Counted from the stretch's first letter, positions 4,104 to 31,906 are shown. The stretch: 64,000 nucleotides of DNA from Candidatus Omnitrophota bacterium (GCA_043814605.1 JBDRJV010000047.1:5077-69076), one strand, 5' to 3'. A program made the numbers and translations. Notes: generated by a model from the letters alone, not told the origin.

Positions 4104-6233
4104 ATGAGTAATAATTTTTTAAGCATTTATGCGCTTCCTTATTTACTTGTAGCAATTTTATTTTTATTTCTTGGGGTTTTTGTTTTTTTGCATAACAAAA
4201 AATCTCTGACAAATCTTTCTTACCTTTTTGTTTGTATAAGTAGTTTTTTATGGCTTTTAGGTAATTACTTAATTATTTCCAGCACAAATGAGAACAGTGC
4301 ATTTTTTTGGGCTAGATTTGCTTATTTTGGAATAACTTTAATCCCTCCGAGTATGTATTTTTTCTCAACAGCTTGGTTGGATTTATATAAAGAAAAAAAG
4401 AAAATAGTAATTTTAAATTATATTTTGGGGTCATGCTTAATACTACTGTTTTTATTTACAGACTTATTTATAACCGGAGTTTATTATTATTTCTTTGGGT
4501 ATTTTTCTAGATTAAGTAAATTCAGTATAATATATTTAATTTGCTTTTTTTTAATTTCCGGAGCATTTTTCTGGAATTTATTTAAAGGTTATAAGAAAGA
4601 AAAAACTGCAATAAAAAAAATTCAAATCAAAAGCGTTTTAATTGCTTTTGTTATTGCGTTTATTGGTGCTGTAGATTTTTGGGTAACTTTTGGCCTAGAA
4701 ATTTATCCAATTAGTTTTATTACGATGACTTTATTTATTGTCATTGTTGCTCATTCGATTATTTATTACAAATTAATGGATATTGAAACTGTACTGCATA
4801 AAACAGCATTATGGTTATTATCTTTCTCTTTTATTGTGATTCCTGTTTTTCTAATATATCGAGGGATCTATTTTTATTTAGAAAAATCTATCATGCTACA
4901 ATTCATCTTTTGGACTGCTTCTTTCGTAATGTTCTCATTTTACCTAAGAGTTATACAGCCGAAAATTGATCATTTTTTTCAAAGGCGCGAGTATAATTTA
5001 CGAGAAACACTAAATAAATTTGTTGAAGAATTGGTTTATCTAAAAGGACTAGATAACCTTATTTCTCAAATAGAAAATACAATCAGAGATACTTTGTATC
5101 CTCAGACGGTTGATATTTTTATTTATAGCGAATTAGATGAAAGGTATATAGCTTTAAATAACAATACTCAAAAAAATAATAGAGAATTAATAGATGAAGA
5201 TAACAATTTTTTAACTTGGTTAAGAAAGAATAATAAAATTGTGTATAAAGAGTTTATAGATATGGATCCACAATTTGTATGGATTAAAGAAGATGCTAAA
5301 AATTATTTTAATTATAACAGTGCTGTTGTAGTAATCCCCTTGATATTAAATAATAATTTATTAGGAATTATTAATTTAGGGAAAAAACAAAATTTAATGC
5401 GCTATAAATCAGCTGATTTTGATTTCTTGAACGTGTTAAGAAATGAATCAGTTATTGCAATATCTAATTCACTTCTTTATGAATATACGGAAGAGCAGGT
5501 TAAACAGCGTTCTGAAGAATTAATTAAAGTACAAAAGCAATTGGTACAGGCAGAAAAATTGGCAACTGTAGGTACACTAGCTGGAGGAGTAGCACATGAA
5601 ATTAATAATCCTCTTGCAGCAATACTCACTAATGTGCAGCTATTATTGGATTCAGATGATATAAAAAATAAAGATGATAAAGAATCTCTGGAATTAATTG
5701 AAGAAGCAACTAAGCGCTGCCGCGAAATTGTAAAAAAACTTATGGTGTATGCACGTAAGCCATTAGCCCGAGAAGAAATAAGCAAAGTAGATTTAAATGA
5801 AGTTATTGGTAATGTATTATCTTTTATTAAATATCAGCTAGGGCAGGAAGATATTAAAATAGTTACTAATCTCCAAAAAAATAATTATTTTGTTACAGGG
5901 AATAAAAATGAACTTGAACATGTAATTACTAATATTGTTTTAAACGCAAAAGATGCGATTAAAAAAATAAAAAAAAGTGGTATTATAGAAATATCTTTAA
6001 CTAAAAGTGAAGAATTTATAAAAATTCAGATAAAAGACGAAGGTGTGGGAATGTCCAGCGAAGTCAGGCCAAAAATATTTGACCCGTTTTTTACCACTAA
6101 AGATGTAGGTAAGGGCTTAGGGCTTGGCCTTTCTATTTGCCAGGCAATTATCGAAAGACATAATGGCAAAATAGAGGTTGAGTCAGAAATAAACAAAGGG
6201 GCTGTTTTTACGGTTCAACTGCCGATTGCATAA
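4104..6233 (+). CDS. sensor histidine kinase, multi-TM N-terminal sensor + HisKA + HATPase_c
   Basis: About 8 hydrophobic helices at the N-terminus. H-box HEINNPLAAIL. G-boxes DEGVGM and GKGLGLGLSIC. Starts 4 nt after the AOS stop. Confidence 0.85.
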   Translation: MSNNFLSIYALPYLLVAILFLFLGVFVFLHNKKSLTNLSYLFVCISSFLWLLGNYLIISSTNENSAFFWARFAYFGITLIPPSMYFFSTAWLDLYKEKKKIVILNYILGSCLILLFLFTDLFITGVYYYFFGYFSRLSKFSIIYLICFFLISGAFFWNLFKGYKKEKTAIKKIQIKSVLIAFVIAFIGAVDFWVTFGLEIYPISFITMTLFIVIVAHSIIYYKLMDIETVLHKTALWLLSFSFIVIPVFLIYRGIYFYLEKSIMLQFIFWTASFVMFSFYLRVIQPKIDHFFQRREYNLRETLNKFVEELVYLKGLDNLISQIENTIRDTLYPQTVDIFIYSELDERYIALNNNTQKNNRELIDEDNNFLTWLRKNNKIVYKEFIDMDPQFVWIKEDAKNYFNYNSAVVVIPLILNNNLLGIINLGKKQNLMRYKSADFDFLNVLRNESVIAISNSLLYEYTEEQVKQRSEELIKVQKQLVQAEKLATVGTLAGGVAHEINNPLAAILTNVQLLLDSDDIKNKDDKESLELIEEATKRCREIVKKLMVYARKPLAREEISKVDLNEVIGNVLSFIKYQLGQEDIKIVTNLQKNNYFVTGNKNELEHVITNIVLNAKDAIKKIKKSGIIEISLTKSEEFIKIQIKDEGVGMSSEVRPKIFDPFFTTKDVGKGLGLGLSICQAIIERHNGKIEVESEINKGAVFTVQLPIA

Positions 6234-6345
6234 ATAAAAGTTATCAAGTTAGAAGATTAATGGTTTAATCTTCGCAATCTATTGTTAATCGTTGTAATTA
6301 GGTATAATCTGGTTTATAACGCAAGATTATACCAGGAGGTTAGTT

Positions 6346-6726
6346 ATGGCAAAAAATATTTTAATTATTGATGATGAGGCATTAGTAACCAAATCTTTAC
6401 GCAAACTACTTGAGAAAAAGGGTTATAATGTAACTATTGCCCAAAGCGGCAAGGAAGCATTAAAACTTGTGCAGGAGAAAGAATTTAATTTGATAATTTC
6501 TGATGTCCGGATGCCGGAACTTGACGGGGTGGAAACAATAAAAGCAATCCGTGATTATGTTAAAGAACAGGGTAAAAAACCCATAAAGGAAATTCTGATA
6601 ACCGGATATGCAGATGAGCAAAAGTATAAAGACGCCGTTGACTTAAAAGTTGCACATTATATTTACAAACCGTTTGATACAGAGGAGCTGGTTGAGGCAG
6701 TCGAAGACAATATTGGTTCTGCTTAA
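6346..6726 (+). CDS. response regulator, receiver domain only
   Basis: CheY-like fold motifs IIDDE, phospho-Asp context ISDVRMPELDG, and conserved K in YKPF. No output domain. Confidence 0.85.
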   Translation: MAKNILIIDDEALVTKSLRKLLEKKGYNVTIAQSGKEALKLVQEKEFNLIISDVRMPELDGVETIKAIRDYVKEQGKKPIKEILITGYADEQKYKDAVDLKVAHYIYKPFDTEELVEAVEDNIGSA

Positions 6727-6770
6727 GCACAGTAGCTACTCTCTACTTAAAAAAAGAAGGAGCAGAAGAA

Positions 6771-8012
6771 GTGCGCGACAATAGAAACGCCGTAATCACC
6801 GGAGTGGGAGTAATTGCTCCTAATGGGATTGGCAAGGAAAAATATTGGAAAGCGTTGGAAAATGGAGTTAGCGGGATAAGACCAGCTACGCTTTTTGATA
6901 CCACTTATTTTAAAAGTAAACTGGTGGGAGAGTGTACGGATTTTGACCCGGTGGAATTTTTAGGCCCTAAAGGCCACCGTACTCTGGATCGCGCTACCAA
7001 AATGATTGCTTCCGCGGCAAAGCTGGCGCTTGATGACGCCAAGCTTGAAATCACAGAAGAAAATACTGATGATATTGGTGTGGTAACAGCCACAACGTTA
7101 TCGGTTGCTTTTGATATTGCAGAGTTTACCAAAGAAGTTGTACAGGACGGGCCAAATATGGCTAACCCGGCTTTGTTTCCGCCCACAACCATGAATTTCC
7201 CCTCAAGTCACATTGCGATCCGTTATAAGATAAAAGGGTTTAACACAACTATTTCCACAGGATTTTCCGCTGGCCTGGATGCTTTGAAATACGCGATTGA
7301 TTTTATCAAGCTTGGCCGGGCCAAGGTGGTTTTAGTTAGCGGGGTAGAAAGCGCGTCATTTTCTAATTTTGTCGGGTTTTATAAAGCGGGTTTTTTAGCT
7401 GGACGTAAAGGTGAAGAAATATCCTGCCCGTTTGATAAAAGGCATAACGGGATTATTTTAGGTGAAGGCTCAACTGTGATTGTTGTTGAAGATGAAGAGC
7501 ACGCCAAGCAAAGAAAAGCTAATATTTATGCAAAGGTTCTGGCAGTAAAAACATTTTTTGATGCTTTTCGCATTACTGAATACGACCCAAAAGCCCGCGG
7601 CTTAAGGCAAAGCATGCGTAAAGCTTTGGATGAATCCAATACTAGCGAAGCAGAGATTGATTTTATCTGTTCCTGCGCAAATTCCGTTCCCATGCAGGAT
7701 GTTATTGAAACTCAGGCCATAAAAGAAGTGTTTAATATTTACGCTGATAATCTAGCGGTAAGCGGGATAAAATCGATGCTGGGTGAAAGCTGCAGCGCTG
7801 CCGGAGGATTGCAAATAGCCGCGGCAATCGGCGCGATGCAGAACAAATTTATTCCGCCAACTATAAATTATAAAGAGCCGGATCCGGAATGTAATCTTGA
7901 TTATGTAGCCAACAAATCCCGCAAGCAGGATGTGAACAATGTCATGATCAATAATTTCGGGCCGGGAGGAAATAATACAACCGCGATAATCACGAAGTAT
8001 CGTGATTATTAG
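6771..8012 (+). CDS. beta-ketoacyl synthase-like protein lacking the Cys-His-His catalytic triad (chain-length-factor-like)
   Basis: Thiolase/KS fold aligned to the downstream KS. Active-site Cys replaced by Phe (ISTGFSAGL vs NACAAGN), His1 by Cys (CSCANSV vs CAHGTGT), His2 by Glu (SMLGESCS vs SMLGHTMG). GTG start with GAAGGAGC RBS. Confidence 0.8.
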   Translation: MRDNRNAVITGVGVIAPNGIGKEKYWKALENGVSGIRPATLFDTTYFKSKLVGECTDFDPVEFLGPKGHRTLDRATKMIASAAKLALDDAKLEITEENTDDIGVVTATTLSVAFDIAEFTKEVVQDGPNMANPALFPPTTMNFPSSHIAIRYKIKGFNTTISTGFSAGLDALKYAIDFIKLGRAKVVLVSGVESASFSNFVGFYKAGFLAGRKGEEISCPFDKRHNGIILGEGSTVIVVEDEEHAKQRKANIYAKVLAVKTFFDAFRITEYDPKARGLRQSMRKALDESNTSEAEIDFICSCANSVPMQDVIETQAIKEVFNIYADNLAVSGIKSMLGESCSAAGGLQIAAAIGAMQNKFIPPTINYKEPDPECNLDYVANKSRKQDVNNVMINNFGPGGNNTTAIITKYRDY

Positions 8013-8606: not shown

Positions 8607-9833
8607 ATGATAAAGCCGCGAATATTAGCTAATGTGCTTAAAAGAGCAATCAAAAGTTTCCCGGCGGTTGTTGTTACCGGGCCTCGGCAATCCGGAAAAA
8701 CAACTTTATTGAAAACATTGTATTCAAAAACACATCGTTATGTTTCTTTGGAAGATCCGGATGTGAGAATGCGGGCAAAAGAGGACCCGGTGAGTTTTTT
8801 AGCGCAAAATAATGCGCCGGTAATTATTGATGAAATACAATATATTCCGGAGCTGCTTTCATATATAAAAACAAAAATTGATCAAAAAAGAAAACCCGGA
8901 CAATGGTTGTTTACGGGGTCTCAGAATTTTGTTTTAATGCAGGGAGTGAGCCAGTCTCTGGCGGGAAGAGCTGCGGTTGTTTCTCTTTTACCATTTTCTT
9001 ATGCGGAGCGGATAAACCAGGCGGGCAAAGCGCAGGATATTAATAACTGGGTGAAGATGCTGAATGTTGAGCAAATTTGTTCAAAAAAAGAATCTTTGAG
9101 TGAACTTATTTTAAGGGGGAATTATCCGGAGATTGCCAGTAAAAAAACAGTTGACCGGCAATTGTGGTGCGGTTCGTATATCTCTACTTACTTAGAAAGA
9201 GATGTGAGAAATTTGTCGGCCATTGGGGATTTAAGCCAGTTTGAAAGATTCTTAAAACTATGCGCGACAAGAACCGGACAAATTTTAAATCTTTCCGAAA
9301 TGGCAAAAGAAATCGGGGTGAGTGTTCCTACGGCAAAAAGGTGGATTTCAATCCTCGAAACAGGATATCAAATATATTTGCTGTATCCATATTATAAAAA
9401 CATCGGTAAACGTTTAATAAAAAGCCCAAAGCTGTATTTTTGTGATACCGCTTTGGCAGCATATTTGTTGGGAATCAATGATCGTGAAGTGATCTTAAAT
9501 AGCCCAAATTTTGGAAATATTTTTGAAACTATGATTATAAATGATTTTGTTAAACGTTTTTTGCATTTTGGGCAGATGCCTTCAATGTATTACTTGCGCA
9601 GCCGGGATGGATTAGAAATAGATTTGGTGATAGAGGTTAATCAGCAATTGCATTTATTTGAAATAAAGAGCGCGATGAATATTACTCAAAAACATGCAAG
9701 CGCGTTGATAAGACTAAAAGCAGATAAAAAATTAGCAATTAAAACTGCGGCGATAATTTCCCGGTCCAAAGATAATTATTTGCTCAGTAAAGGAGTGGTA
9801 AATTATAATTGGAAGAATATTCTTTCTTTTTGA
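8607..9833 (+). CDS. AAA+ ATPase with C-terminal DUF4143 / PD-(D/E)xK-like domain (COG1373 family)
   Basis: Walker A GPRQSGKTT and Walker B VIIDEIQ. C-terminal D..EID..EIK motif. Paralog of the ORFs at 12498 and 25186. Confidence 0.8.
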   Translation: MIKPRILANVLKRAIKSFPAVVVTGPRQSGKTTLLKTLYSKTHRYVSLEDPDVRMRAKEDPVSFLAQNNAPVIIDEIQYIPELLSYIKTKIDQKRKPGQWLFTGSQNFVLMQGVSQSLAGRAAVVSLLPFSYAERINQAGKAQDINNWVKMLNVEQICSKKESLSELILRGNYPEIASKKTVDRQLWCGSYISTYLERDVRNLSAIGDLSQFERFLKLCATRTGQILNLSEMAKEIGVSVPTAKRWISILETGYQIYLLYPYYKNIGKRLIKSPKLYFCDTALAAYLLGINDREVILNSPNFGNIFETMIINDFVKRFLHFGQMPSMYYLRSRDGLEIDLVIEVNQQLHLFEIKSAMNITQKHASALIRLKADKKLAIKTAAIISRSKDNYLLSKGVVNYNWKNILSF

Positions 9834-10256: not shown

Positions 10257-10352
10257 TTTTCTCTATTGCTTTTTAGTTTTAACAAAATATGAATTATGTA
10301 GTTTTGAAATAGATTGTAGAGATAAGTATGTTATAGAGAATTTTTGGTTTTT

Positions 10353-10420
10353 TCTCTCTACTAGTTGAAAACATTAATATATTTTCAGTGAAATCCCGCT
10401 AAGGCGGGGCTACTCGCTAC
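10353..10420 (+). repeat. REP-like dispersed palindromic element, copy 1
   Basis: ctctctact-agttgaaaacattaatatattttcag-tgaaatcccgctaaggcggggctactcgctac. Contains the CCCGC-TAAG-GCGGG hairpin. Confidence 0.8.
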
Positions 10421-10602
10421 TATTTACTTAAAAAAATAAGTTTAATTATTTTGTAATGAATAAAATATGAATGGTGAGTTTTGCAAGTGAACTGTATATA
10501 TAAGCGTATTTTAGAGGAATTGAGTATTTTTCTCTCTACTTGCTACTCGCTTGTGCCCGTAAGGGTACTACTCTCTACTTAAAAAAAGAAGGAGCTAAAA
10601 AC

Positions 10603-11820
10603 GTGCGCAACAACAGAAGAGTCGTAGTTACAGGAATTGGGATTGTTTCGGCATTAGGCATTGGCCGGGATAAGTTTTGGGATAATATTAAAAAAGGTAA
10701 GTCAGGGATATCTAAGATTACCTCAATAGATACATCTGCTTATAAATGCCATTATGGCGGAGAAGTAAAAGATTTTAATCCTGAAGATTTTATCCCGAAA
10801 AGAAGAATAAAGTTTTTAGGCAAAACATCACAGTTGGCAATTGCCGCGGCTTATTTAGCTTTACAAGATTCCGGTATTCCTTTAAAGCGAATCCCCAAAG
10901 AATCAATGGGTGTGATCATGGGAACAACTATTGGGGAGAAAGCTATAGAAGAGTTAGCTGCACAATGGGCCAAAGGCGGATTAAAAGAAATAGACAGAAA
11001 AAAACTTTTCCAGGCTGCTGCCAATAATATTCCGGCTAATGTAGCTATACAGTTTAAAGCCATGGGATTAAATTGTTTAATCCCCAATGCCTGTGCTGCG
11101 GGTAATTATGCAATTGGTTATGGATATGATTTAATAAGGAATAAAGATTTAAATTTTGCTTTAGTCGGTGGAAGTGAATCGTTTTCACCTTTAGCCTATG
11201 CCGGGTTTCAAAGGCTTTATGCTATGTCTCCGGATAAATGCAGTCCTTTTGATAAAAATAGAAAAGGCATGATGCTGGGAGAAGGTTCTGGAATATTATT
11301 TTTAGAATCTTTAGAATCAGCTTTAAAACGCAAAGTAAAGATTTACGCGGAAATTTTAGGTTACGGCTTATCCTGCGATGCTTATCATGCTACAGCGCCT
11401 GACCCCAAAGGCATTGCTCGAGTTATGCAAAAGGCGTTAGATCAAGCGAATATTAGTTATAAAGAGGTTGATTATGTTTGCGCGCACGGTACAGGTACTC
11501 CGGCTAATGATAAAGCCGAAAGCGCGGCAGTCAAGGAAGTTTTCAAAGAGAGGCATAAAGAAGTATTAGTTAGTTCAATAAAATCAATGCTCGGGCATAC
11601 AATGGGTGCGTCTTCAGCGATTGCAGGAGCAGCTTGTTGCTTAGGGATAAAAGAAGGAATTGTGCCGCCGACCATAAACTTTGAAACTCCGGATCCGGAA
11701 TGTGATATAGACTGCGTGCCGAATAAAGCGCGTAAAAAAGATCTGAATGTTGTTTTAAATAACGGCTTTGCTTTTGGCGGAAATAATTGCTGCGTGGCGT
11801 TTGGGAAATATAGCGGATAG
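10603..11820 (+). CDS. beta-ketoacyl-ACP synthase (FabF/KAS II-like), catalytic triad intact
   Basis: NACAAGNYAIG (Cys), CAHGTGT (His), SMLGHTMG (His). GTG start at 10603 with the same upstream leader (tactctctacttaaaaaaagaaggagc) as the 6771 gene. The ORF track extends to an upstream TTG at 10540, which I do not favour. Confidence 0.85.
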   Translation: MRNNRRVVVTGIGIVSALGIGRDKFWDNIKKGKSGISKITSIDTSAYKCHYGGEVKDFNPEDFIPKRRIKFLGKTSQLAIAAAYLALQDSGIPLKRIPKESMGVIMGTTIGEKAIEELAAQWAKGGLKEIDRKKLFQAAANNIPANVAIQFKAMGLNCLIPNACAAGNYAIGYGYDLIRNKDLNFALVGGSESFSPLAYAGFQRLYAMSPDKCSPFDKNRKGMMLGEGSGILFLESLESALKRKVKIYAEILGYGLSCDAYHATAPDPKGIARVMQKALDQANISYKEVDYVCAHGTGTPANDKAESAAVKEVFKERHKEVLVSSIKSMLGHTMGASSAIAGAACCLGIKEGIVPPTINFETPDPECDIDCVPNKARKKDLNVVLNNGFAFGGNNCCVAFGKYSG

Positions 11821-12121: not shown

Positions 12122-12230
12122 TTTTATACATCCGCGGCCTAAAACCGCGCCCATTTATGGCGCGGATAAAAGGAGGCCGCTTGAGTATTCCACCTCAGGA
12201 ACCACGGGCTTTAGCCCGTGGGGGTTCCAT
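12122..12230 (+). repeat. ~110-bp GC-rich structured element, copy A
   Basis: Nested stems GCGGCC/GGCCGC and CCGCGCC/GGCGCGG, plus hairpin GGAACCACGGGC-TTTA-GCCCGTGGGGGTTCC. Sharply GC-rich against the AT-rich background. Confidence 0.7.
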
Positions 12231-12497
12231 TAAAAAGCAATAACATTAATATCTGCAGTTAGTTGCATTATTAAAAAAGATAATTTTTCAAAAACAAAAA
12301 ATGACAAATTTAAAGTGATACTTTAAAATTATCAATAATTTATACAAATTAGTATTGACAGTACTGATTTGTATAAGTTTGGATGCGTAATAAGGATAAT
12401 AATATATTGTAAGGAAAAACATGACTTGACAGCAATATATTATGCCTGCTATAATTTATATAAAATTAATAATAACCCTGCTAAAATTTAGAAAAAA

Positions 12498-13745: not shown

Positions 13746-13876
13746 AAAAGAAATAATTGCTGTGTCGCGTTTGGGAAATATAAATAATGTTGTGTAATGT
13801 TTAATGTGTTATGTGTAATGAATTTTTTATGCATCAAGCTCCAGGCTGCAAGCTTCAGGGGTTTTAGCTTGCGACT

Positions 13877-13934
13877 TGTTGAGAACATTAATATATTTTT
13901 AGCGAAATCCCGCTAAGGCGGGGCTACTCGCTAC
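13877..13934 (+). repeat. REP-like element, copy 2 (preceded by the gcatcaagctccaggctgcaagc module from 13831)
   Basis: Near-identical to copy 1. Confidence 0.8.
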
Positions 13935-13950
13935 TTTTAAAAGAGGCTTC

Positions 13951-20376: not shown

Positions 20377-20421
20377 ATGCTAAAATTCAAGACCTGACCC
20401 CATTACGCTTTATTCGCAGAA

Positions 20422-21438
20422 TTGTTGAATGAGTTCTTTGAAAATAGTGAATTAAAATTAACTTTTGAAGTTTTATTATGCAATATTGGAATAAGCGCTA
20501 AAAAAGTGGCAGCATTATCAGCGTTGATTTTTTACAGAGATTATATTTTAGATGGTGGTTACTATCCTATGGGGGGAATGGATGAGTTTGCTAAAATTTT
20601 ATCAAACAGATTTGTTGAGTTAGGAGGAGAATTAATTTTAAATAATAGAGTTAATAAAATTTGTTTGTATAAAAATACAATTAAAGGGGTAGTATTAAGC
20701 GATGGAAAGTTTATTGATAGTAAATTAGTTGTTTCTAATTCTGATGCTACTCAAACATTTAAAGATTTGTTAGCAGATATAGATACAAAAGAAAAAAAAC
20801 TGGTTGAGCAATTTAAAATTTCCCCACCATTATTTGCTTTGTATTTAGGATTAGATTGTAAGTATAGTGATTTTACAAATGAAACATGTAATATGTGGTG
20901 GGTTAAAACGAATGATTTGGATAGCTACTATTCTGATTTAAAAAATAATATTTTAAGCGACAGTAATAATTTTTTTATGACCAGTTTTCCTGCGGCACAT
21001 ACAAATAATGTTGATGCTAACATAAAAAACACTATGCAATTTTTTATGTATGCTCCATATGAAAATGAGGATTTTTGGGGTAAACATAGGATAAGAGTTG
21101 AAGATAAATTAATAAATGAAGCGTCTGCAATTTTTAAAGGGTTTAAAAAAAATATAAAAGTTAAAGTTAGTGCGACACCTTTAACGTTTAATCGGTATAC
21201 CTTAAATAGATCAGGTTCTCCTTACGGGTGGGCGTCAACATTGGACCAATTAAGCAATTCAGTTTTTCCTCAAAAAACGTCAATAAATAATTTATATTTA
21301 GTTGGGCATTGGTGTACCATAGGTAGCGGGCAAGGCGGGGTTCCAAAAGTATTGTTTTCGGGGAGAAAAGCTGCATATTTAATAACTAAGCAAGCAAAAA
21401 TGAAATGGAAATTTAAGAAAAATATTTTAACTTATTAA
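20422..21438 (+). pseudogene. 5'-truncated paralog of the CrtI-like FAD oxidoreductase (lacks the FAD-binding N-terminus)
   Basis: Aligns to residues ~155-488 of the 15644 ORF (ILDGGYYP, GHW.T.GSGQGGV) at ~40% identity. The reading frame begins right after the transposase-plus-GC-element. Confidence 0.6.
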
Positions 21439-23684: not shown

Positions 23685-23884
23685 AATTTAATATTGTGTA
23701 GTGTTTAATGTGTTATGTGTCATGAATTTTTATGCAGCAAGCTCCAGGCTGCAAGCTTCAGGGGTTTTAGCTTGCGACTTGAAGCTTGAGGCTTGTGGCT
23801 TATATTTTTTCATTAAACAATAAACTTTACACATTACACAAAAATTTACGGATATTATATTGATTTATACACGGAGGTTAAAAG

Positions 23885-24922
23885 ATGCTGGAGATTTTGG
23901 TTGTTGATGATGAGCAAGAAATTGCTAAGGCACTAAAGAGATTTTTTGATCAAAAAGGATATTCTGTCCATATTGCCCATGACGGGAAAACTGCTGTTGA
24001 GCTGGTTAGGCAGCACCGGCCTCACCTTGTGTTCTTAGATATTCGTATGCCGCTGATGGATGGGTTAAGTGTGTTACGGAATATCCGTAATTATGACACG
24101 ACAATAAAAGTAATCATGGTTACAGCTTTTGGTACAAAAGAAATTGTTAATGAAGCTATGCGCCTGGGCGCAGTGGATTTTATCCGCAAACCTTTTACCC
24201 GTACATATCTGGAGCAGGAAGTTATGGCTAAGGTTAGCATCCAGCTTTTTGAAGATCTTCGCCAGGAAGTAGATGAGAAAAATAAATTAATTGATCAGCT
24301 TGAGAATTTAAACCAGAGAGCAGCAAGAAATTTTTATCAGACCGTGCTTTCTCTGGCTGCCGCATTAGAATCACGGGATTATTATACCCATGGCCATTCT
24401 GAACGCGTGGAAATGTACAGTAAACTTATTGCCAAAGAATTAAAAACAACGCTGGGTTTAGATATTAATAAGAAATTTATGGATGATTTGCATATTGAAT
24501 CAAGATTGCATGATATTGGTAAGATCGCGGTTTCAGATACAGTCCTGAATAAACCCGGAAGATTGACTCATGCTGAATACAATGAAATAAAAAGGCATCC
24601 GGGTGAAAGCGCGAGAATTCTGGCGCCATTAGATAATATTAAAGAAAATATAGAAGTTATTTATTCTCATCATGAACGCATTGACGGAAAAGGTTATCCG
24701 GATAATAAGACTGATAAAAAAATCCCATTAAGAGCCAAGATTATTGCTGTAGCTGATGCTTTTGATGCGATGACGTCAGACCGTCCGTACCGAAAAGCAA
24801 TGTCTGGAAAATATGCATTTACCGAACTTGAAAAAAACAAAGAAATTCAGTTTGATGCAGAAGTTGTTCATGCTTTTGTCTCTGCATATAATAAAAAAGA
24901 AACAATAGCTTTAAAAATTTAA
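23885..24922 (+). CDS. response regulator with HD-GYP phosphodiesterase output domain
   Basis: REC domain (VVDDE, FLDIRMPLMDG) plus HD..H..HHER.DGKGYP motifs. Confidence 0.85.
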   Translation: MLEILVVDDEQEIAKALKRFFDQKGYSVHIAHDGKTAVELVRQHRPHLVFLDIRMPLMDGLSVLRNIRNYDTTIKVIMVTAFGTKEIVNEAMRLGAVDFIRKPFTRTYLEQEVMAKVSIQLFEDLRQEVDEKNKLIDQLENLNQRAARNFYQTVLSLAAALESRDYYTHGHSERVEMYSKLIAKELKTTLGLDINKKFMDDLHIESRLHDIGKIAVSDTVLNKPGRLTHAEYNEIKRHPGESARILAPLDNIKENIEVIYSHHERIDGKGYPDNKTDKKIPLRAKIIAVADAFDAMTSDRPYRKAMSGKYAFTELEKNKEIQFDAEVVHAFVSAYNKKETIALKI

Positions 24923-25185: not shown

Positions 25186-26334
25186 ATGCATTTTAAACGC
25201 AGCTTAAACCTTAAAAAATTCAATACAAGCTTATTTCTTTTTGGCCCTCGTTTAACAGGAAAAACTACATTATTAAAATTACTTTCCTTTGATGAATATT
25301 TTGATTTGCTAGATCCGGAATTAGAACTGGAGTATCGAACAAATCCTAAGCAATTTTGGCAGCAAATATCCGCGATGAAAAAAGGATCCCGCATCATTGT
25401 CGATGAGATTCAAAAAGTGCCGATACTTTTAAATTATGTGCAAAAAGCAATAGATCAGCTAGGGCATAAATTTATTCTCTCAGGATCAAGCGCCAGAAAA
25501 TTAAAACGCGGCGGAGCAAATCTTTTAGGTGGGCGGGCGTTAGATTTAAGACTGCATCCTTTAACATCCGAAGAATTAGGAGATAATTTTTCCTGTGATT
25601 TTAGTATGCAGTATGGAACATTACCGCGAATTTCTGATTTAATCAGTGAAAATAATTTAGACTTAGCTAAGCAGCATTTAAAAAGTTATATTTCAACCTA
25701 TCTTAAAGAAGAAATTCAAGCGGAAGCATTGACTCGGAATGTGGGCGCTTTTAACCGGTTTTTGAATATTGCCGCACAAAGTAATGGCCAGTTTATTGAA
25801 TTTTCTAATATTTCCCGGGAATGCTCTGTGCCGGCAAGCACGGTGAAGGAATATTATCAAATTCTTGAAGATACTTTAATCGGATTTTTTTTGTGGCCAG
25901 ATGATCGCAGTGAGAGAAAAAAAGCAAGGCCTAAATTTTATTTTTTTGATTGCGGTGTCTTAAGATCAATACAAAACAGGCTTAATGATCCTCCTACAGC
26001 TATTGAATTAGGGTGTCTTTTTGAAACATGGTTTGTTAATGAAATATTGCGCTTAAGAGATTATCTGGGCAAAGAACATCAGTTTTCTTTTTGGCGGGAG
26101 AGAGACCAGGAAATTGATATTTTAATTTCAGGGGGCCGGGGGGTAATTTTAGCGATTGAATGTAAATCCGGGAAAGTTAATAAGTGCCCAAATGCTGTAA
26201 ATAGTTTTAAAAAAAAGTTTCCTAAAGTTCCGATTATAATTGCTTCGTTACAAGAACCCAAAGCTAAACTTGTGGGGAATGTGAAAGTTTTACCTTATAA
26301 ACAAGCGATAGATTATTACAAAAATTTAAAATAA
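25186..26334 (+). CDS. AAA+ ATPase with C-terminal DUF4143 / PD-(D/E)xK-like domain (COG1373 family)
   Basis: GPRLTGKTT, IVDEIQ, C-terminal EIDILI...AIECKS. Confidence 0.8.
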   Translation: MHFKRSLNLKKFNTSLFLFGPRLTGKTTLLKLLSFDEYFDLLDPELELEYRTNPKQFWQQISAMKKGSRIIVDEIQKVPILLNYVQKAIDQLGHKFILSGSSARKLKRGGANLLGGRALDLRLHPLTSEELGDNFSCDFSMQYGTLPRISDLISENNLDLAKQHLKSYISTYLKEEIQAEALTRNVGAFNRFLNIAAQSNGQFIEFSNISRECSVPASTVKEYYQILEDTLIGFFLWPDDRSERKKARPKFYFFDCGVLRSIQNRLNDPPTAIELGCLFETWFVNEILRLRDYLGKEHQFSFWRERDQEIDILISGGRGVILAIECKSGKVNKCPNAVNSFKKKFPKVPIIIASLQEPKAKLVGNVKVLPYKQAIDYYKNLK

Positions 26335-26422
26335 AAACAAAAGAGAAACAAATAATTCAAATAATAATATTGATTTAACGCGGGCAATTCATGAATTGCC
26401 CCTTATATGCGGAGGAATGTGC

Positions 26423-27472
26423 ATGCTGAAAATTCTGGTTGTAGACGATGAACCGGCAATAACCGATATTCTGGAAAATTTCTTTAAAAAGAAAAAATAC
26501 GAAGTATATGTTGCCAATAACGGACAGATTGCCTTAGATATTATCAAAGAACAAAGGCCGCATCTAGTGTTTCTGGACGTTAAAATGCCGGTTATGGACG
26601 GCTTAACAGTATTGCGTAATATCCGCATGATTGATAATAGTATTAAAGTAATTATGGTGACAGCCTATGAGGATGAAGAAACAGTTAAAGAAGCAAAATC
26701 ATTAGGGATTGTCGATTATATCCATAAACCGTTTAAGCTGGAATATCTGGAAAAAGATGTTATTGAAAAAGTTAATGCCCAGCTATTTGGGGATTTACGG
26801 CAGGAATTAGACGAAAAAAGCAAACTGGTTGAACGCTTGGCGCAGGAAGTAGAAAAAGTAAGCACTTTAAATAAAAAATTAAAACGAAATTTTTACCAAA
26901 CAATACTTTCTTTAGCTACCGCATTAGAAGCCCGCGACCGCTACACCCACGGCCACTCTGAACGCGTGGATCTGTACAGCAAGCTTATTGCCGAAGAATT
27001 AAAAGAAGGATTTAGCTGGAAAATAGATGATGAGTTTATGGAAAAACTGCATATTGAATCAAGATTGCATGATATCGGGAAGATCGCTATCCCGGATATG
27101 GTTCTAAATAAACCGGGAAAATTAGATGATGAGGAGTTTAACCAGATTAAATCTCATCCTGTATACAGTGCGCATATTTTAGAGCCGTTAGAAGATTTAA
27201 AAGAAAGCAGTGAAGTAATCCGGCACCATCACGAACGCGTTGACGGAAGAGGTTATCCCAGCGGATTTACCCGGGAACAGATGCCGGTACGCTCAAGAAT
27301 TATTGCAGTGGCAGATTCATATGATGCCATGACATCAGACCGGCCTTATCGAAAATCAATGCCGATTGAAACTGCATTATCTGAACTTGAGAAAAATAAA
27401 GGCACACAGTTTGACGCTGAAGCTGTAGACGCGTTTATCAGCGCTTATAAAAAAGGTAAAATTCCCAATTAG
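26423..27472 (+). CDS. response regulator with HD-GYP phosphodiesterase output domain (paralog of 23885)
   Basis: MLKILVVDDE start by analogy to the paralog (MLEILVVDDE). GGAGG RBS 8 nt upstream. HHERVDGRGYP. The ORF track extends to an upstream ATG at 26396. Confidence 0.8.
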   Translation: MLKILVVDDEPAITDILENFFKKKKYEVYVANNGQIALDIIKEQRPHLVFLDVKMPVMDGLTVLRNIRMIDNSIKVIMVTAYEDEETVKEAKSLGIVDYIHKPFKLEYLEKDVIEKVNAQLFGDLRQELDEKSKLVERLAQEVEKVSTLNKKLKRNFYQTILSLATALEARDRYTHGHSERVDLYSKLIAEELKEGFSWKIDDEFMEKLHIESRLHDIGKIAIPDMVLNKPGKLDDEEFNQIKSHPVYSAHILEPLEDLKESSEVIRHHHERVDGRGYPSGFTREQMPVRSRIIAVADSYDAMTSDRPYRKSMPIETALSELEKNKGTQFDAEAVDAFISAYKKGKIPN

Positions 27473-27515
27473 GGTGAAGGGTGATGGTGGAAGGGGGAGG
27501 AAAAGCTTTTTTCTT

Positions 27516-27587
27516 GCTACTTTCTACTCTTTGAGAACATTAATATATTTTCAGCGAAATCCCGCTAAGGCGGGGCTCCTCGCTACT
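27516..27587 (+). repeat. REP-like element, copy 3 (immediately upstream of mtnP)
   Basis: ctactctttgagaacattaatatattttcagcgaaatcccgctaaggcggggctcctcgctac. Confidence 0.8.
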
Positions 27588-27608
27588 AATCAATAACTAG
27601 GAGCGATT

Positions 27609-28469: not shown

Positions 28470-28493
28470 TTTATAGGCTGCAGGTTTCAATTC

Positions 28494-28555
28494 ACCCCGT
28501 CTCAGCGGGATTTCGCTAAAAATTAAATTAATGGTCTCAACAAGTCACAAGTCTA
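28494..28555 (-). repeat. REP-like element, copy 4, variant hairpin CCCGCTGAGACGGGG (immediately downstream of mtnP, inverted relative to copy 3)
   Basis: Reverse complement matches the consensus. Followed by the gcttgcagcctggaacttgatgcat module. Confidence 0.75.
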
Positions 28556-28636
28556 AAAAACCCTGAGGCTTGCAGCCTGGAACTTGATGCATAAAAATTC
28601 ATTATGCAATTATTGGAATTTTTATCTGCTTCGTTT

Positions 28637-29557
28637 TTAACTTCTATAGTCTAGTTGCGATAAACGGGATTCGATAATACGCAAAAAATCTTTTTTTTCT
28701 TGATCCGTAAGCCGGGAATTATTAACAAGCTCTTTGATGTTGCTGATTTTAGTTAAAATATTTTTAAAGCAGGTTTCAGTTTTAATGCCTAGATAATCCG
28801 CAAAATATTTAAAGTCAGCGTAAGTGATTTTATTTTTTTTACCGTTTAAAGTCAAAGCCAGATCATCTTCATCAGGAATTACCAGTTTTGTACAAACGAT
28901 GTCATAAGCCGGGCTTAAGCGGATGCGGCCTTGCGGGGTGTAAATCAGGGAAAAGTTTTTTAGATGAGCGTCCCCGTTGCCGATTATGAAAAAAAGCAGG
29001 ACTCTTTCGAAAAATAACTGCACATCCAGTCCCGGGAATTCAGACGAAGTTTTTATTTTTTGGCCGATTTTTTCTAAGGAACATTTATATTTACCTTCTT
29101 CGGTTAAGATCTGCATAAAATCTTCCATGTGCAGTTTTTCTTTTTTATCCCGGTCAAAACGTTTTACGATGTAAGCCGTGCTATTATCAGCCAACTGGAT
29201 TAAAGTATGCGAGGGCACTGCTATTCCCAGATTATAGGCAATGTTCATGCAGAGGTTTTCATTCTGCGGGATATTCGGAAAAGTTTCTAACTGAGGTTTT
29301 AAAATATATTCACCGTTTTCCTGGGCAACTTCTAATTTTTTATTTTTTCGGTTGAGTTTTAGGGATAGTTTTACTTGTACTCCGGAGATAGACATTTTTC
29401 CCGCCATATCCTGAGCTTTGAGTGATATATTTTTTAAATCAATATCAATTTTGGGAAAATAATCCGTGTTAAAAAGCTTTTTTAAACAGCGGGAATGATA
29501 TTCAGAATCATTTTTAGTTTTTATTCCGCAAAAATCACAATACTTATTCATGAACAA
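28637..29557 (-). CDS. hipT: HipA-family Ser/Thr kinase toxin lacking the N-terminal subdomain (HipT-like)
   Basis: Gly-rich loop SISGVQVKLS, catalytic loop GNGDAHLKNFS, SPAYDIV. 306 aa. Overlaps the upstream 109-aa gene by 14 nt. Confidence 0.75.
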   Translation of the reverse strand: MFMNKYCDFCGIKTKNDSEYHSRCLKKLFNTDYFPKIDIDLKNISLKAQDMAGKMSISGVQVKLSLKLNRKNKKLEVAQENGEYILKPQLETFPNIPQNENLCMNIAYNLGIAVPSHTLIQLADNSTAYIVKRFDRDKKEKLHMEDFMQILTEEGKYKCSLEKIGQKIKTSSEFPGLDVQLFFERVLLFFIIGNGDAHLKNFSLIYTPQGRIRLSPAYDIVCTKLVIPDEDDLALTLNGKKNKITYADFKYFADYLGIKTETCFKNILTKISNIKELVNNSRLTDQEKKDFLRIIESRLSQLDYRS

Positions 29558-29873
29558 TCATTTCCTCGATAGACACCGCGCCGATAGTATCTTTACAGGT
29601 ACTCAGTAATATTTTGAAAGAATCACTTTTGTCAATTTTTAACTTTTTGGATACAATATCTAAATACCAGCCTTCAGGGATTAAGCCTTTAAAAAACGGG
29701 AACATTTTTTCGCTGGTATATGTTTTCTGATTAATCGGCAGGGAAAGGGAAATCCCTAAAGAATTTTTGATAAATTCATCATCATAAGTAAATTTATAAC
29801 CGGTTTGGGTTTTTTCCAGGATTCCGGCTAAAATATTATTAAATTTTACAATCGCCTTAGGGTTGTTTTTCAT
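29544..29873 (-). CDS. hipS: HipA N-terminal-subdomain-like small protein (HipS-like)
   Basis: 109 aa. Position and size match the HipS component of tripartite hipBST loci. Overlaps both neighbours. Confidence 0.6.
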   Translation of the reverse strand: MKNNPKAIVKFNNILAGILEKTQTGYKFTYDDEFIKNSLGISLSLPINQKTYTSEKMFPFFKGLIPEGWYLDIVSKKLKIDKSDSFKILLSTCKDTIGAVSIEEMIVHE

Positions 29874-30069: not shown

Positions 30070-30092
30070 ATATCTCCATTTTATGTTTAAAT

Positions 30093-30237
30093 TATACACC
30101 CTAAGAGGTATAATGTCAATGATTTTTAAAAAAAATTATACCCTTTAAGGATTATATTTATTAAATTGAATAAAATTATGCTCAAAAAAGCATAAAATTG
30201 CCTATCAATATTGCATTTTACACCCTTTAGGGTATAT
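30093..30237. promoter_or_regulatory. three operator-like palindromes TATAC(A)CC-N3-6-GGTATA in the hipBST promoter region
   Basis: 30093-30112 tatacaccctaagaggtata. 30137-30156 tataccctttaaggattata. 30218-30237 tacaccctttagggtatata. Confidence 0.6.
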
Positions 30238-30289
30238 AGTATTTGTGTTTACCAGAAGATATCAGTGTTCATCTGTGTTATCTAAGGTT

Positions 30290-31906
30290 TTATTTTTGCG
30301 GAATCTTTATCCTAAAGATGCTTCCTTTATCTACTTCACTTTCAACTTCAATCGTTCCATTATGATTTTGAATGATCTGCCTACATATGGATAGTCCTAA
30401 TCCTGAACCTGTGTGTTTAGTTGTAAAAAATGGATTAAAAATATTATCTAATGCTTTTTTGCTGATGCCGCAGCCAGTATCTTTGATTTCAATAGTTGAT
30501 GTATTTTTATCCGATGCAACAGATATAAAAATCTCACCGCCCTTAGGCATTGCTTCTATGGAATTTAAGATTAAGTTTAATAAAACCTGCTTAATTTGAT
30601 TGGAATCAATGTGAATCAATAATTCTGGATTTTCATATTCTTCATGAACTTTAATTTTATTTTTTAAGAATTCATTATTCAAGAATTCTAATATATCTTT
30701 AATCAGATTAGCAATATTTGTGGGTTTTAAATTGGGTTCTGCAGGTTTGGAAAAATCCAGTAATCTGTGAATAATATTATTTATCCGTTCAACTTCTGAA
30801 GGGATAAGCTTATTGAATTTATCAAAAAACTCATCATCTTTGTCTTTATATTTATCCTTAATGTATTCTGAAAATGTTTTAATCGTAGTCAAAGGATTTT
30901 TTACTTCATGTGCTAAGCCTAGAGCCATAGTTGTAGCAACCTTTAAACGTTGGGATTTTTCTAGTTCATGATGTAGGAGTTTGTTTTCTGTAGCAAATTC
31001 TTCAGTGGTTTTACCCAGAAATAAACGGTCGATAATTTTTTGGATTTTGTTACGGAGAGGATTAAACAATATAGCAATAATAAAAGTAGCGACTAAACTT
31101 ACAGGCAGAGATGTGTATCCAATGATATTTTTAAATAGCCACTCAATACCTACAATTAGTAATAGGTATATTCCAGTTAATATAGCTATAAGAATTGAAT
31201 AGATCAAACTTTTTTGTAAAGCTACTCTAATTCCCATAATTTGATGTTTAAATATTCCTATACACATGCATATTATCATAAGTGGAATACAAAAATATCC
31301 TAGTGGGTATATTTCTAACCCGTATTTACCTAAAAAATCAATTGGTCCAATAATAGTTCCTAAAACAAAAGGATACAGAGCAAAATAAAGTTGTTGTTTT
31401 TCTGAGGATGTAATATTAGGCTGATTAATTTTTTTGTAAATAATATAAATGACTAAAATTACTAAAACAGACCATATGAATTGAAACATGTAGTGGTAAT
31501 TACCAGCTTTAGGATAAAATCCCCAAAAGTGAGTATAGAAACCTGCGAGTATAGTATTAGTTTTAAATAAGAAGTAAACGAGAGTTAAATAACCTACTAG
31601 TAAACTTATTGTTACAATTTTTTTTAATTTTATTCCGGTTATTTTAGCAGTAAAATATAAACAAGAAAATGGTAATCCTCCAACTCCAAGGTAAACAGAT
31701 CTAGATAAAAAGTTAGCAAGAATTTTATTTGTGGTTGAGAAAAGAATAGCATCTGAGAATTGCCAAATAAATAAAGATAGACAGAATAAAAACCAACCAA
31801 AATTAATACCTGATTTAATATTTTTATTCCATACATATATTCCTAATAAAATAATTAATATGGCGCTGATAAATGGCGGGATGGAATATGCACTAAATAT
31901 AAGCAT
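30290..31906 (-). CDS. sensor histidine kinase, multi-TM sensor + HisKA + HATPase_c
   Basis: HEVKNPLTTIKTF H-box. GSGLGLSICRQII G2 box. About 8 TM helices. Confidence 0.85.
   Translation of the reverse strand: MLIFSAYSIPPFISAILIILLGIYVWNKNIKSGINFGWFLFCLSLFIWQFSDAILFSTTNKILANFLSRSVYLGVGGLPFSCLYFTAKITGIKLKKIVTISLLVGYLTLVYFLFKTNTILAGFYTHFWGFYPKAGNYHYMFQFIWSVLVILVIYIIYKKINQPNITSSEKQQLYFALYPFVLGTIIGPIDFLGKYGLEIYPLGYFCIPLMIICMCIGIFKHQIMGIRVALQKSLIYSILIAILTGIYLLLIVGIEWLFKNIIGYTSLPVSLVATFIIAILFNPLRNKIQKIIDRLFLGKTTEEFATENKLLHHELEKSQRLKVATTMALGLAHEVKNPLTTIKTFSEYIKDKYKDKDDEFFDKFNKLIPSEVERINNIIHRLLDFSKPAEPNLKPTNIANLIKDILEFLNNEFLKNKIKVHEEYENPELLIHIDSNQIKQVLLNLILNSIEAMPKGGEIFISVASDKNTSTIEIKDTGCGISKKALDNIFNPFFTTKHTGSGLGLSICRQIIQNHNGTIEVESEVDKGSIFRIKIPQK

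Follow-up and report, generated by a model that had tools for sequence, protein, structure and literature searches.

A mosaic histidine kinase with an exchanged DHp core in a conserved two-component locus of Candidatus Omnitrophota

The stretch of DNA analyzed here (the window; 64,000 nucleotides of Candidatus Omnitrophota, assembly GCA_043814605.1, JBDRJV010000047.1:5077-69076) carries four histidine kinase genes, HK1 to HK4, and the response regulator genes RR1, RRa, RRb, and RR4 (Table 1). One of the kinases, HK3, is a recombinant in which the dimerization and histidine phosphotransfer (DHp) domain and the N-terminal half of the catalytic and ATP-binding (CA) domain are of the HK4 lineage and lie within an otherwise HK2-type gene. 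The source is a single contig of a metagenome-assembled genome (MAG), and both HK3 and its tandem arrangement with HK2 are known from that contig alone. An initial annotation of this DNA had described four multi-transmembrane (TM) sensor kinases, and Pfam bore this out: the N-terminal ~220 amino acids (aa) of HK1 to HK4 matched HisKA_7TM (PF16927; 36.9 to 49.1 bits, cut-off 28.6), and all four also passed the thresholds for HisKA (36.3 to 53.6 bits, cut-off 26.9) and HATPase_c (86.4 to 101.4 bits, cut-off 26.4). RRa and RRb each join a receiver (REC) domain to an HD_5/HD domain by Pfam, and their HD and GYP motifs were located; the output of this REC-HD-GYP pair is presumably hydrolysis of cyclic di-GMP. 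A tblastn sweep of the 64-kb window gave no kinase or receiver domain besides those of HK1 to HK4, RR1, RRa, RRb, and RR4.

Table 1. Kinases, regulators, and neighboring features, with positions counted from the first nucleotide of the window (CA-N and CA-C, N- and C-terminal halves of the CA domain; 7TM, seven-transmembrane; ORF, open reading frame; mid-a and mid-b, parts of the middle block)
Feature	Position	Strand	Description
HK1	4104-6233	+	HisKA_7TM, middle domain, HisKA, HATPase_c (Pfam)
RR1	6346-6726	+	REC-only; downstream of HK1; Response_reg E = 2.9e-28
AO1	15644-17110	+	Full-length, amine-oxidase/phytoene-desaturase-like; Amino_oxidase and NAD_binding_8 (Pfam); directly upstream of HK2, in the variable "left arm"
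HK2	17110-19329	+	HisKA_7TM, GAF-like block, HisKA, HATPase_c
HK2 7TM	17110-17724		
HK2 TM6-7	17725-17904		
HK2 mid-a	17905-18165		
HK2 mid-b	18166-18540		
HK2 signaling-helix linker	18541-18642		
HK2 DHp + CA-N	18643-19089		
HK2 CA-C	19090-19326		
Y1 transposase	19368-20213	+	IS200-like, 281 aa; Y1_Tnp (Pfam) E = 6.9e-13; between HK2 and AO2
Palindrome-rich repeat	20271-20377	none	Inverted copy of 12122-12231, 93.6% identical (self-blastn)
AO2	20422-21438	+	N-terminally truncated amine oxidase, 338 aa; upstream of HK3
HK3	21453-23684	+	Mosaic extra copy; 743-codon ORF
HK3 7TM	21453-22076		
HK3 TM6-7	22077-22256		
HK3 mid-a	22257-22517		
HK3 mid-b (aa 356-481)	22518-22895	+	C-terminal part of the GAF-like block; relatively recent common ancestry with HK2 18166-18540
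HK3 foreign block (aa 482-668)	22896-23456	+	Linker, aa 482-515; HK4-type DHp and CA-N to the G1 box, aa 516-668 (22998-23456)
HK3 CA-C	23457-23681	+	G1 box via F and G2 boxes to the C terminus; common ancestry with HK2 19090-19326; 89-91% aa identity
RRa	23885-24922	+	REC-HD-GYP; Response_reg and HD_5 (Pfam)
RRb	26396-27472	+	REC-HD-GYP; Pfam domains
HK4	30290-31906	-	7TM kinase without GAF block
RR4	31909-32271	-	REC-only; immediately upstream of HK4; Response_reg E = 1.1e-26; of the class predicted as partner of an HK4-type DHp

Mosaic structure of HK3

The initial annotation had reported that HK2 and HK3 are nearly identical in their middle region and C-terminal end, that their TM sensors are only ~45% identical, and that their DHp domains are of different types. 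Block by block, aa identity was 42% in the 7TM part (HK2 aa 1 to 205), 70% in TM6-7 (aa 206 to 265), 95.3% over the 213 aa of the middle block (aa 266 to 478), 35% in DHp plus CA-N (aa 479 to 665; 31 to 35% for DHp/CA-N), and 91% in CA-C (aa 666 to 735; ~90% over the last 70 aa). Nucleotide identity of the two shared blocks was lower (87.6% and 87%), with the many synonymous differences noted before: by the method of Nei and Gojobori (NG86), synonymous (dS) and nonsynonymous (dN) divergence were 0.85 and 0.026 for aa 266 to 478 and 0.65 and 0.051 for aa 666 to 735. The reported match of the HK3 DHp to HK4 was likewise found, a four-way alignment giving 60 to 61% identity between HK3 and HK4 in DHp and 54 to 55% in CA-N, versus 34% and 31 to 34% between HK3 and HK2. 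In a regression over 171 pairs of HK2-type family members, the middle-block identity of HK2 and HK3 predicted 93 to 100% identity in linker, DHp, and CA-N. The observed values of 50%, 34%, and 31%, respectively, lie 12 to 17 residual standard deviations below the prediction (z, −12 to −17), whereas the divergence of the two 7TM parts was normal for the family by the same regression.

Trees of the separate blocks gave HK3 conflicting relatives. In neighbor-joining (NJ) trees, the tail of the middle block and CA-C each placed HK3 as sister to HK2 (193 and 192 of 200 bootstraps, respectively), whereas in DHp plus CA-N (aa 516 to 668) it fell inside the HK4-type clade in 198 of 200 bootstraps, in 116 of them as sister to HK4 itself. 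A maximum chi-square scan of sites at which HK3 matches only one of HK2 and HK4 placed breakpoints at HK3 aa 514/516 and 668/673 (chi-square, 61.4; score reached in 0 of 1000 permutations), with HK4-like residues at 50 of the 60 informative sites within aa 516 to 668 and at 3 of the 46 outside. Both the scan and the NJ bootstrap were in-house implementations at the protein level, in place of the GARD/RDP tests proposed in the initial annotation; significant breakpoints and nonuniform silent divergence were both found. Each junction falls on a motif common to both kinase types: one on SEKL/KV, which immediately precedes the H-box, and the other on DTGxGI, the G1 box. Every catalytic motif of HK3 is intact, namely, H (HEVKNPL, with the phospho-acceptor His codon at position 23031), N (LLNLILNAIDA), G1 (DTGKGI), F (FDPFFT), and G2 (GTGLGL).

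Silent sites showed that the segments of HK3 differ in age. In mid-b (HK2 aa 353 to 477/478), where HK2 and HK3 are 94% identical in aa and 91% in nucleotides and use the same codon at 82% of identical residues, 27 of 34 fourfold-degenerate sites (aa 353 to 478) carried the same base, as did 17 of 26 in CA-C. The corresponding counts were 7 of 24 in the 7TM part, 5 of 12 in TM6-7, 10 of 24 in aa 266 to 352, and 3 of 14 in DHp plus CA-N, the random expectation being 0.25 to 0.39; the whole middle block and CA-C together differed from the other blocks (Fisher P = 3.6e-7). Silent sites were unsaturated only in HK2 aa 353 to 477 (dS, 0.41; dN, 0.033) and 661 to 735 (dS, 0.62; dN, 0.066). In aa 266 to 352, the proteins are 98% identical while silent sites are saturated (proportions of silent and nonsilent differences, pS and pN, of 0.77 and 0.015), which points to strong purifying selection rather than conversion. 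Silent divergence within the middle block was heterogeneous (42 of 82 codons differing versus 20 of 116; 0 of 300 permutations). The dN/dS ratio in the shared blocks was 0.08 to 0.11, indicating that both HK2 and HK3 have been under purifying selection since they diverged. Silent sites of different classes, conflicting block trees, and breakpoints together argue for recombination rather than for uneven constraint alone.

Of the domain shuffling or gene conversion proposed earlier, a recombinant origin of HK3 is therefore supported by breakpoints and block trees, whereas recent gene conversion is not, the shared blocks being only 82 to 91% identical in nucleotides, with a dS of 0.41 to 0.62 or saturated. 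HK2 and HK3 resemble cases of interparalogue gene conversion in being tandem paralogues with sharp boundaries and with tracts of lower silent divergence than the flanks; they differ in that the tracts are not near-identical DNA (86 to 91%; dS, ~0.4 to 0.6), so that any conversion must be old. GC content at third codon positions (GC3) also shifts along HK2, rising from 0.16 to 0.41 at codon 333 (change-point chi-square, 56.6; 0 of 200 permutations), and AO1 has a GC3 of 0.15, like the left part of HK2. This suggests that the left part of HK2, up to the middle of the GAF-like block, has a history other than that of the right part. GC3 of the HK3 foreign block was ~0.25 versus ~0.45 in the HK2 equivalent (P = 1e-4). 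HK1 and HK4 have a GC3 of 0.19 to 0.24 throughout, except for the last ~70 codons of HK1 (0.38).

With the foreign block as query, a word-indexed search gave nothing but short fragments and did not recover HK3; in its place, HK3 aa 482 to 668 were compared with 1.84 billion representative proteins in an exhaustive HMMER search. It retrieved mainly HK4-type kinases of ~540 aa, the best being 53 to 58% identical. The block was 56% identical to HK4, 58% to P0173, and 34% to HK2, with HK4 and P0173 tied as the closest relatives found. HK4 itself was rejected as a direct recent donor (56% aa and ~67% nucleotide identity, saturated silent sites); HK4 represents the donor class but is not a recent donor. 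A scan of genome contigs with HK4 gave only distant kinases (≤42%) of other phyla, recovered via a generic motif. Elsewhere, an HK4-like DHp is present in the 7TM-GAF kinases P0212 and P0230, at ~40% identity.

The HK2 family, its locus, and the sensor/transmitter junction

A protein search recovered HK3 as a Candidatus Omnitrophota MAG protein, encoded on a 76.7-kb contig, and ~23 proteins of other Omnitrophota (P0003 to P0025) that have the architecture of HK2 and are 44 to 58% identical in that search. HK2 is 88 to 100% identical to them in the signaling-helix linker, 74 to 90% in DHp, 54 to 65% in CA-N, 62 to 72% in the middle block, and 18 to 41% in the 7TM part, and it carries their near-invariant linker and DHp signature, SILANDSAMAFKAAQLFEDLK..AQARLIQSEKLNLLGQLASSMAHEINNPLAIISGN. 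HK2 is thus a canonical member of an Omnitrophota 7TM-GAF-HisKA-HATPase family with a highly conserved cytoplasmic core, and its identity to the DHp domains of orthologues in other genomes indicates that its own DHp was vertically inherited. HK3 lacks the signature (44 to 56% in the linker and 29 to 35% in DHp against the family) while matching the same family at 63 to 73% in the middle block and 67 to 80% in CA-C; it is a chimera, not a full member of the HK2 family.

The middle block lies after an extra TM helix and leads via a long helix into DHp; in HK4 it is entirely absent. It fell below the Pfam thresholds for GAF, only HK3 matching GAF_2 at 17.3 bits (cut-off, 28.6), whereas Pfam GAF matches are present in the more distant relatives P0028 to P0036. 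An AlphaFold2 model of the block (mean predicted local distance difference test score, 80.6) had as its top Foldseek matches in the Protein Data Bank the GAF domains 3oov, 3ci6, 3eea, and 5w10 (E, 4e-6 to 5e-5; probability, 1.0; TM-score normalized to target, 0.58 to 0.67), from which the middle block of HK2 and HK3 is predicted to have a GAF fold. In the order of 7TM, GAF-like, signaling-helix, HisKA, and HATPase_c parts, these proteins resemble other HisKA_7TM (PF16927) kinases with a cytoplasmic GAF domain; they differ in a GAF too divergent for Pfam and in an unusually invariant linker and DHp.

A common gene order was found in six other Omnitrophota loci (L001, L002, L003, L007, L009, and L010). 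It begins with an SRPBCC/shikimate dehydrogenase fusion gene, followed by the genes for an HK1-type kinase and its REC-only regulator. Ketosynthase genes and variable oxidoreductase or methyltransferase genes come next, then a single HK2-type kinase gene, a pair of REC-HD-GYP genes, PNP_UDP_1, and genes for an MGDG-synthase-like glycosyltransferase and for a lipid A acyltransferase. The fetched flanks reach the upstream part with the HK1-type kinase only in L001, L003, and partly L002, so that the HK2-type kinase was seen in six loci and the HK1-type in three; L002 is rearranged downstream of its HK2-type kinase, after a Y1_Tnp gene. HK2 occupies the position expected of its family, after ketosynthase and oxidoreductase genes and before the two REC-HD-GYP genes and PNP_UDP_1. 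RRa is the orthologue of the first conserved REC-HD-GYP gene (REC 73% identical to those of L001 and L003), and RRb is that of the second (67 to 76%). RR1 is 43 to 60% identical to the REC-only genes that follow the HK1-type genes in L001 to L003, with synteny kept. HK1 shares its locus position with full orthologues in L001 and L003 (32 to 36% identity in the 7TM part, 74 to 81% in coil plus DHp) and with an incomplete one in L002. It is a syntenic orthologue that has been conserved, and it did not arise as a recent paralogue of HK2 to HK4. Relative to the other loci, the window has acquired three DUF4143 ATPase genes, a 23S-IVP gene, the Y1 transposase, and the AO2+HK3 unit.

HK1 and HK2 are thus conserved syntenic single-copy genes, HK4 is an unrelated neighbor, and only HK3 is extra, which contradicts the idea of a striking local expansion of four paralogues. 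Nor do DHp domains appear to have been exchanged reciprocally between pairs, as had been proposed: the DHp domains of HK1 and HK2 are each typical of the orthologous family to which the kinase belongs, and the HK2 DHp said to match HK1 is only 39 to 40% identical to it. The C-terminal type supposedly common to HK1 and HK4 amounts to 61% identity over 51 aa, inside the range of 48 to 61% between HK1 and any HK4-type kinase. Swaps between HK1 and HK2 and between HK1 and HK4 were rejected on these family identities. The suggested mapping of DHp types onto REC-only and REC-HD-GYP regulators is not supported either; it would assign one type to both HK1, with a REC-only neighbor, and HK2, with REC-HD-GYP genes, and the other to both HK4, with a REC-only neighbor, and HK3, beside REC-HD-GYP genes.

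Comparison across genomes uncovered a second kind of discontinuity, in which the near-invariant cytoplasmic core of the HK2 family connects to unrelated 7TM sensors at a single fixed point, ~aa 218. Family pairs from different MAGs can be 90 to 97% identical from the end of TM7 onward and only 20 to 30% identical in the 7TM part. L009 (6670 to 10403) and L010 (6679 to 10414), from different MAGs, are collinear with 87% DNA identity over a stretch that starts at kinase codon ~223 and spans both REC-HD-GYP genes. No collinear DNA similarity was found across the 7TM region 5′ of that codon, and the genes immediately upstream are not the same, being two amine oxidases in one locus and an amine oxidase with a methyltransferase in the other. 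In a single-change-point scan of 15 pairs, the median position of the junction was HK2 aa 218 (range, 176 to 234); for the HK2-HK3 pair, it was aa 211. 7TM cassettes are also common to different transmitter types (P0173, P0037, and P0027): the transmitter of P0173 is of the HK4 type (69% identity to HK4), yet the 7TM part of this protein is 45 to 47% identical to those of HK2 and HK3, and P0037 joins a 7TM part 59% identical to that of HK3 to a non-kinase tail. Among the small number of loci compared, the kind of 7TM part seems to go with the kind of enzyme encoded upstream.

The genes upstream of HK2 and HK3 are both amine oxidases, of which AO2 lacks ~140 N-terminal aa including the FAD-binding fold. 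Homology of AO2 begins at ~20371, equivalent to AO1 residue 140 (tblastn), where the palindrome-rich repeat abuts it. AO2 is 40% identical to AO1 and 41% to the amine oxidase of L002, AO1 is 43% identical to the latter (upstream of P0004), and fourfold-degenerate sites between AO1 and AO2 are saturated (0.24 same base). Because the three proteins are about equally distant (40 to 43%), AO2 with the HK3 sensor is an old, divergent "left arm" and not a recent copy of AO1 with the HK2 sensor. A closer relationship of AO2 to the amine oxidase of another genome than to AO1 was rejected on the same figures, and a 333-aa protein upstream of P0003, considered as a counterpart of AO2, proved unrelated. 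A Y1_Tnp gene 36% identical to that of the window directly follows the HK2-type gene in L002.

Partner choice, proposed history, and rival explanations

The DHp domain sets homodimerization and regulator choice, and new paralogues need insulation from the parent. Skerker et al. 2008, Capra et al. 2012, and Ashenberg et al. 2011 are said to have traced regulator choice and homodimerization to a few residues of DHp helix 1 and helix 2. Sequence comparison of helix-1 positions H+7, +11, and +12 gave T, T, F in both HK3 and HK4 and A, G, N in HK2. Given this shared triplet and the role of DHp, the swap probably insulated HK3 from HK2. A stand-alone REC adjoins the kinase in three of the eight closest full-length HK4-type loci (L092, L093, and L097) and is 45 to 52% identical to RR4 versus 32 to 38% to RRa and RR1. 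Judged from the HK4-type DHp of HK3, a changed partner specificity of this kinase is plausible, and HK3 probably signals to an RR4-like stand-alone receiver; that its output was moved there from the REC-HD-GYP pair we would put at somewhat less than an even chance. A search of the contexts of P0085 and P0033 revealed no adjacent regulator. In L095, a 363-codon REC ORF is also present.

The comparisons show the mosaic, its breakpoints, the unequal ages of its segments, the synteny, and the uniqueness of HK3, which we explain as follows. The locus conserved in the phylum holds HK1 with its REC-only regulator, fatty-acid/polyketide-type enzyme genes, one HK2-type kinase, and two REC-HD-GYP genes. 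The cytoplasmic part of the HK2-type kinase (GAF, signaling helix, DHp, and CA) is under very strong purifying selection. Lineages exchange the 7TM sensor and the upstream enzyme genes together, with the junction where TM7 ends (~aa 218). An additional unit in this genome, the truncated AO2 with HK3, is inserted between HK2 with the Y1 transposase and repeat on one side and the regulators on the other. Only two parts of HK3, the C-terminal end of GAF and the C-terminal half of CA, have a relatively recent ancestor in common with HK2 (dS, ~0.4 to 0.6), its 7TM sensor and upstream gene being an old, divergent left arm. Some 150 to 190 residues of HK3 were replaced by an HK4-type cassette covering the end of the signaling helix, DHp, and CA up to the G1 box; the crossovers lie at SEKL, ahead of the H-box, and at DTGxGI, motifs kept in HK2-type and HK4-type kinases alike. 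This swap would insulate HK3 from HK2 and redirect its output from the REC-HD-GYP pair to an RR4-like receiver, so that a second 7TM sensor would feed a different output. For the structural and evolutionary account of HK3 as a mosaic with a swapped core, we estimate a probability of about 0.7.

Several observations weigh against this account. No close donor was found by the searches, and since the best matches to the foreign block reach only 56 to 58% with saturated silent sites, they do not fix the timing or the source of the swap. HK3 aa 482 to 515, 50% identical to the family linker and grouped with the HK2 family in only 147 of 200 bootstraps, are close to neither family, which leaves the 5′ boundary at aa 481/482 or at 515/516; this segment was either imported with the cassette or remodeled after the swap. 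HK3 is a singleton on one MAG contig, the chimera and the tandem having been seen once. The case for altered phosphotransfer compares three helix-1 positions; RRa, which adjoins HK3, shows no obvious compensating change; and five of the eight HK4-type loci are without an adjacent RR4-like receiver, four having none in the short flanks available and L098 having a 351-codon REC ORF ~2 kb downstream. The 7TM parts of other family members show a milder drop in GC3, and the compositional signal is therefore partly generic and supportive only.

The simplest alternative, that HK2 and HK3 are an old tandem duplicate without recombination whose alternating pattern reflects uneven constraint, draws on the extreme constraint of the family, as seen in the near-identical but silently saturated aa 266 to 352, and on the variable 7TM parts and conserved cores of the orthologues. 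It would leave the two classes of silent sites and the abrupt breakpoints without a cause, and it would require the linker and DHp, the most conserved part of the family, to be the most divergent in HK3 and to group there with another kinase family in 198 of 200 bootstraps; we consider it very improbable. An assembly artefact might have misjoined in tandem, at a repeat, HK2 and HK3 as alleles of one locus from two co-occurring Omnitrophota populations or generated HK3 as a chimeric contig path. The sequence is indeed a MAG contig, with HK3 on a single contig only, HK2 and HK3 differ as alleles of different MAGs do (L009 versus L010), and AO2 is cut exactly at a dispersed repeat. However, with a foreign block only ~67% identical to HK4 in nucleotides and with aa 482 to 515 unmatched elsewhere in the window, HK3 could not have been built from HK2 and HK4 reads. 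Misassembly does not yield a pair of in-frame junctions that fall on homologous motifs and leave all catalytic boxes intact, a false join would need the repeat inside AO2 of the second population, and a misjoin at 20271 to 20377 leaves the swapped DHp unexplained. An artefact is thus unlikely.

It may be asked instead whether HK3 is an ancient separate kinase with an HK4-type core, whose C-terminal GAF part and ATP-lid were later homogenized with HK2 by two conversion tracts that stopped at the nonhomologous core. The saturation of silent sites between the foreign block and HK4 (56% aa), the younger flanks of somewhat unequal age (dS, 0.41 and 0.62), and the heterogeneity within the middle block would all fit, although two independent tracts are required where one event suffices. 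Moreover, no other chimera of an HK2-type middle block and an HK4-type DHp occurred among the proteins scored in a word-indexed search of a 5.8-billion-protein collection, despite the ~23 HK2-type relatives, an absence that is weak evidence because sampling of the HK3 lineage is sparse. We give this alternative real weight but consider it clearly less probable than the replacement of the core within an HK2-type gene. There is, finally, a small chance that HK3 is a nonfunctional, decaying by-product of transposon and repeat rearrangement with no consequence for signaling. Its upstream AO2 is truncated and lies beside a Y1 transposase and a repeat, it is a singleton, and its normally invariant linker has diverged by 50%; set against this are a 743-codon ORF intact in an AT-rich genome, the presence of all H, N, G1, F, and G2 motifs, the low dN/dS in the blocks shared with HK2, and the 338-codon ORF of AO2 that is still open.

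Beyond HK3, the 7TM/cytoplasmic boundary of these kinases might be an exchange point at the level of Omnitrophota populations, between a left arm of lipid- or polyketide-modifying enzymes with a matching 7TM sensor and a right arm of the GAF-transmitter core with two HD-GYP regulators. HK3 would then mark the tandem capture of a second left arm, kept functional by replacement of the whole DHp cassette, which would insulate it in one step and redirect it to a CheY-like receiver. We offer this wider scheme tentatively and think it more doubtful than credible. The joint exchange of 7TM sensors and upstream enzyme genes hints that the sensor reads the product of the neighboring enzymes, and if so, it would give a lead on the ligands of HisKA_7TM sensors.

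Shuffling of N-terminal sensor domains has been described as a hallmark of new kinase paralogues after lineage-specific expansion (Alm, Huang and Arkin 2006, PMC1630713). HK3 resembles those cases in being a duplicated kinase that gained a new combination of modules, with sensors that differ between close paralogues and a transposase nearby. It differs in that there the kinase core anchors the phylogeny and the upstream domains change, whereas in HK3 the core itself (DHp and half of CA) was replaced; furthermore, the sensor swap seen here distinguishes orthologous loci from one genome to another, always has the same fixed junction, and takes the neighboring enzyme genes along. Domain shuffling in expanded kinase families is thus already known; what is unusual here is the replacement of the specificity core within a conserved gene and a fixed sensor/transmitter junction common across genomes and linked to neighboring enzyme genes. 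Our literature search on natural DHp swaps and on Omnitrophota kinases gave nothing directly relevant beyond the study of Alm et al. 2006.

In HK3, insulation would come by wholesale replacement of a DHp cassette, which sets it apart from the specificity rewiring associated with Skerker, Capra, and Ashenberg. In the accepted view, new two-component pathways arise by duplication, sensor domains are shuffled, and insulation, by its known natural route, takes a few point substitutions at specificity positions. We know of no well-characterized natural case in which the specificity core was exchanged as a cassette within a strongly conserved kinase. HK3 would illustrate how bacteria can rewire a signaling pathway via recombination, and its two junctions, one at SEKL ahead of the H-box and one at the G1 box, offer a natural template for the engineering of chimeric kinases. 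The four kinases and four regulators of this one locus allow a direct test of how a kinase avoids cross talk soon after its duplication.

Other genes and repeats of the window

Window positions 340 to 28469 form the locus kept across Omnitrophota (also in L001, L003, L007, L009, and L010), which includes ketosynthase, acyl carrier protein, and ketoreductase genes and has the look of a pathway of membrane-lipid or polyketide type that is controlled by two-component systems. The two ketosynthase paralogues (6771 to 8012 and 10540 to 11820) are 37% identical in aa with saturated silent sites, and their 5′ ends share a 68-nucleotide stretch with 82% identity (6736 to 6803 and 10568 to 10635). DUF4143/AAA_14 ATPase genes at 8607 to 9833, 12498 to 13745, and 25186 to 26334 separate genes that are adjacent in other Omnitrophota; they lie between the two ketosynthase genes, after the second ketosynthase gene, and between the two REC-HD-GYP genes, respectively, and in L002 such a gene separates the HK1-type kinase from its REC gene. 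These genes behave like insertions. Between the conserved locus and HK4, on the minus strand (28637 to 29873), a gene for a HipA-like C-terminal kinase domain (306 aa) overlaps at its upstream end a 109-aa ORF, and the two may form a split HipBA-type toxin-antitoxin module.

IS200-like Y1 transposase genes stand beside a kinase gene in three genomes (window 19368 to 20213, L002 10311 to 10985, and L004 4219 to 4725). The copies in the window and in L002 follow an HK2-type kinase, that in L004 precedes the truncated soluble HK4-type kinase P0085, and the window protein is 34 to 36% identical to the other two. A search of Rfam gave no family match anywhere in the window. A dispersed intergenic repeat of ~70 to 80 bp occurs at 10341 to 10424, 13860 to 13938, 27507 to 27588, 28477 to 28559, 36413 to 36482, and 48103 to 48191; its copies are 80 to 95% identical, in both orientations, with a conserved hairpin (CCCCGC-TAAG-GCGGGG), and lie mostly just 3′ of gene ends. 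A second repeat family is found at 13785 to 13878 and 23689 to 23781, the latter directly 3′ of the HK3 stop codon, and the palindrome-rich repeat in Table 1 and its inverted copy constitute a third. The ORF at 33953 to 34969 contains an internal direct repeat (34053 to 34314 and 34290 to 34554, 72% identical).

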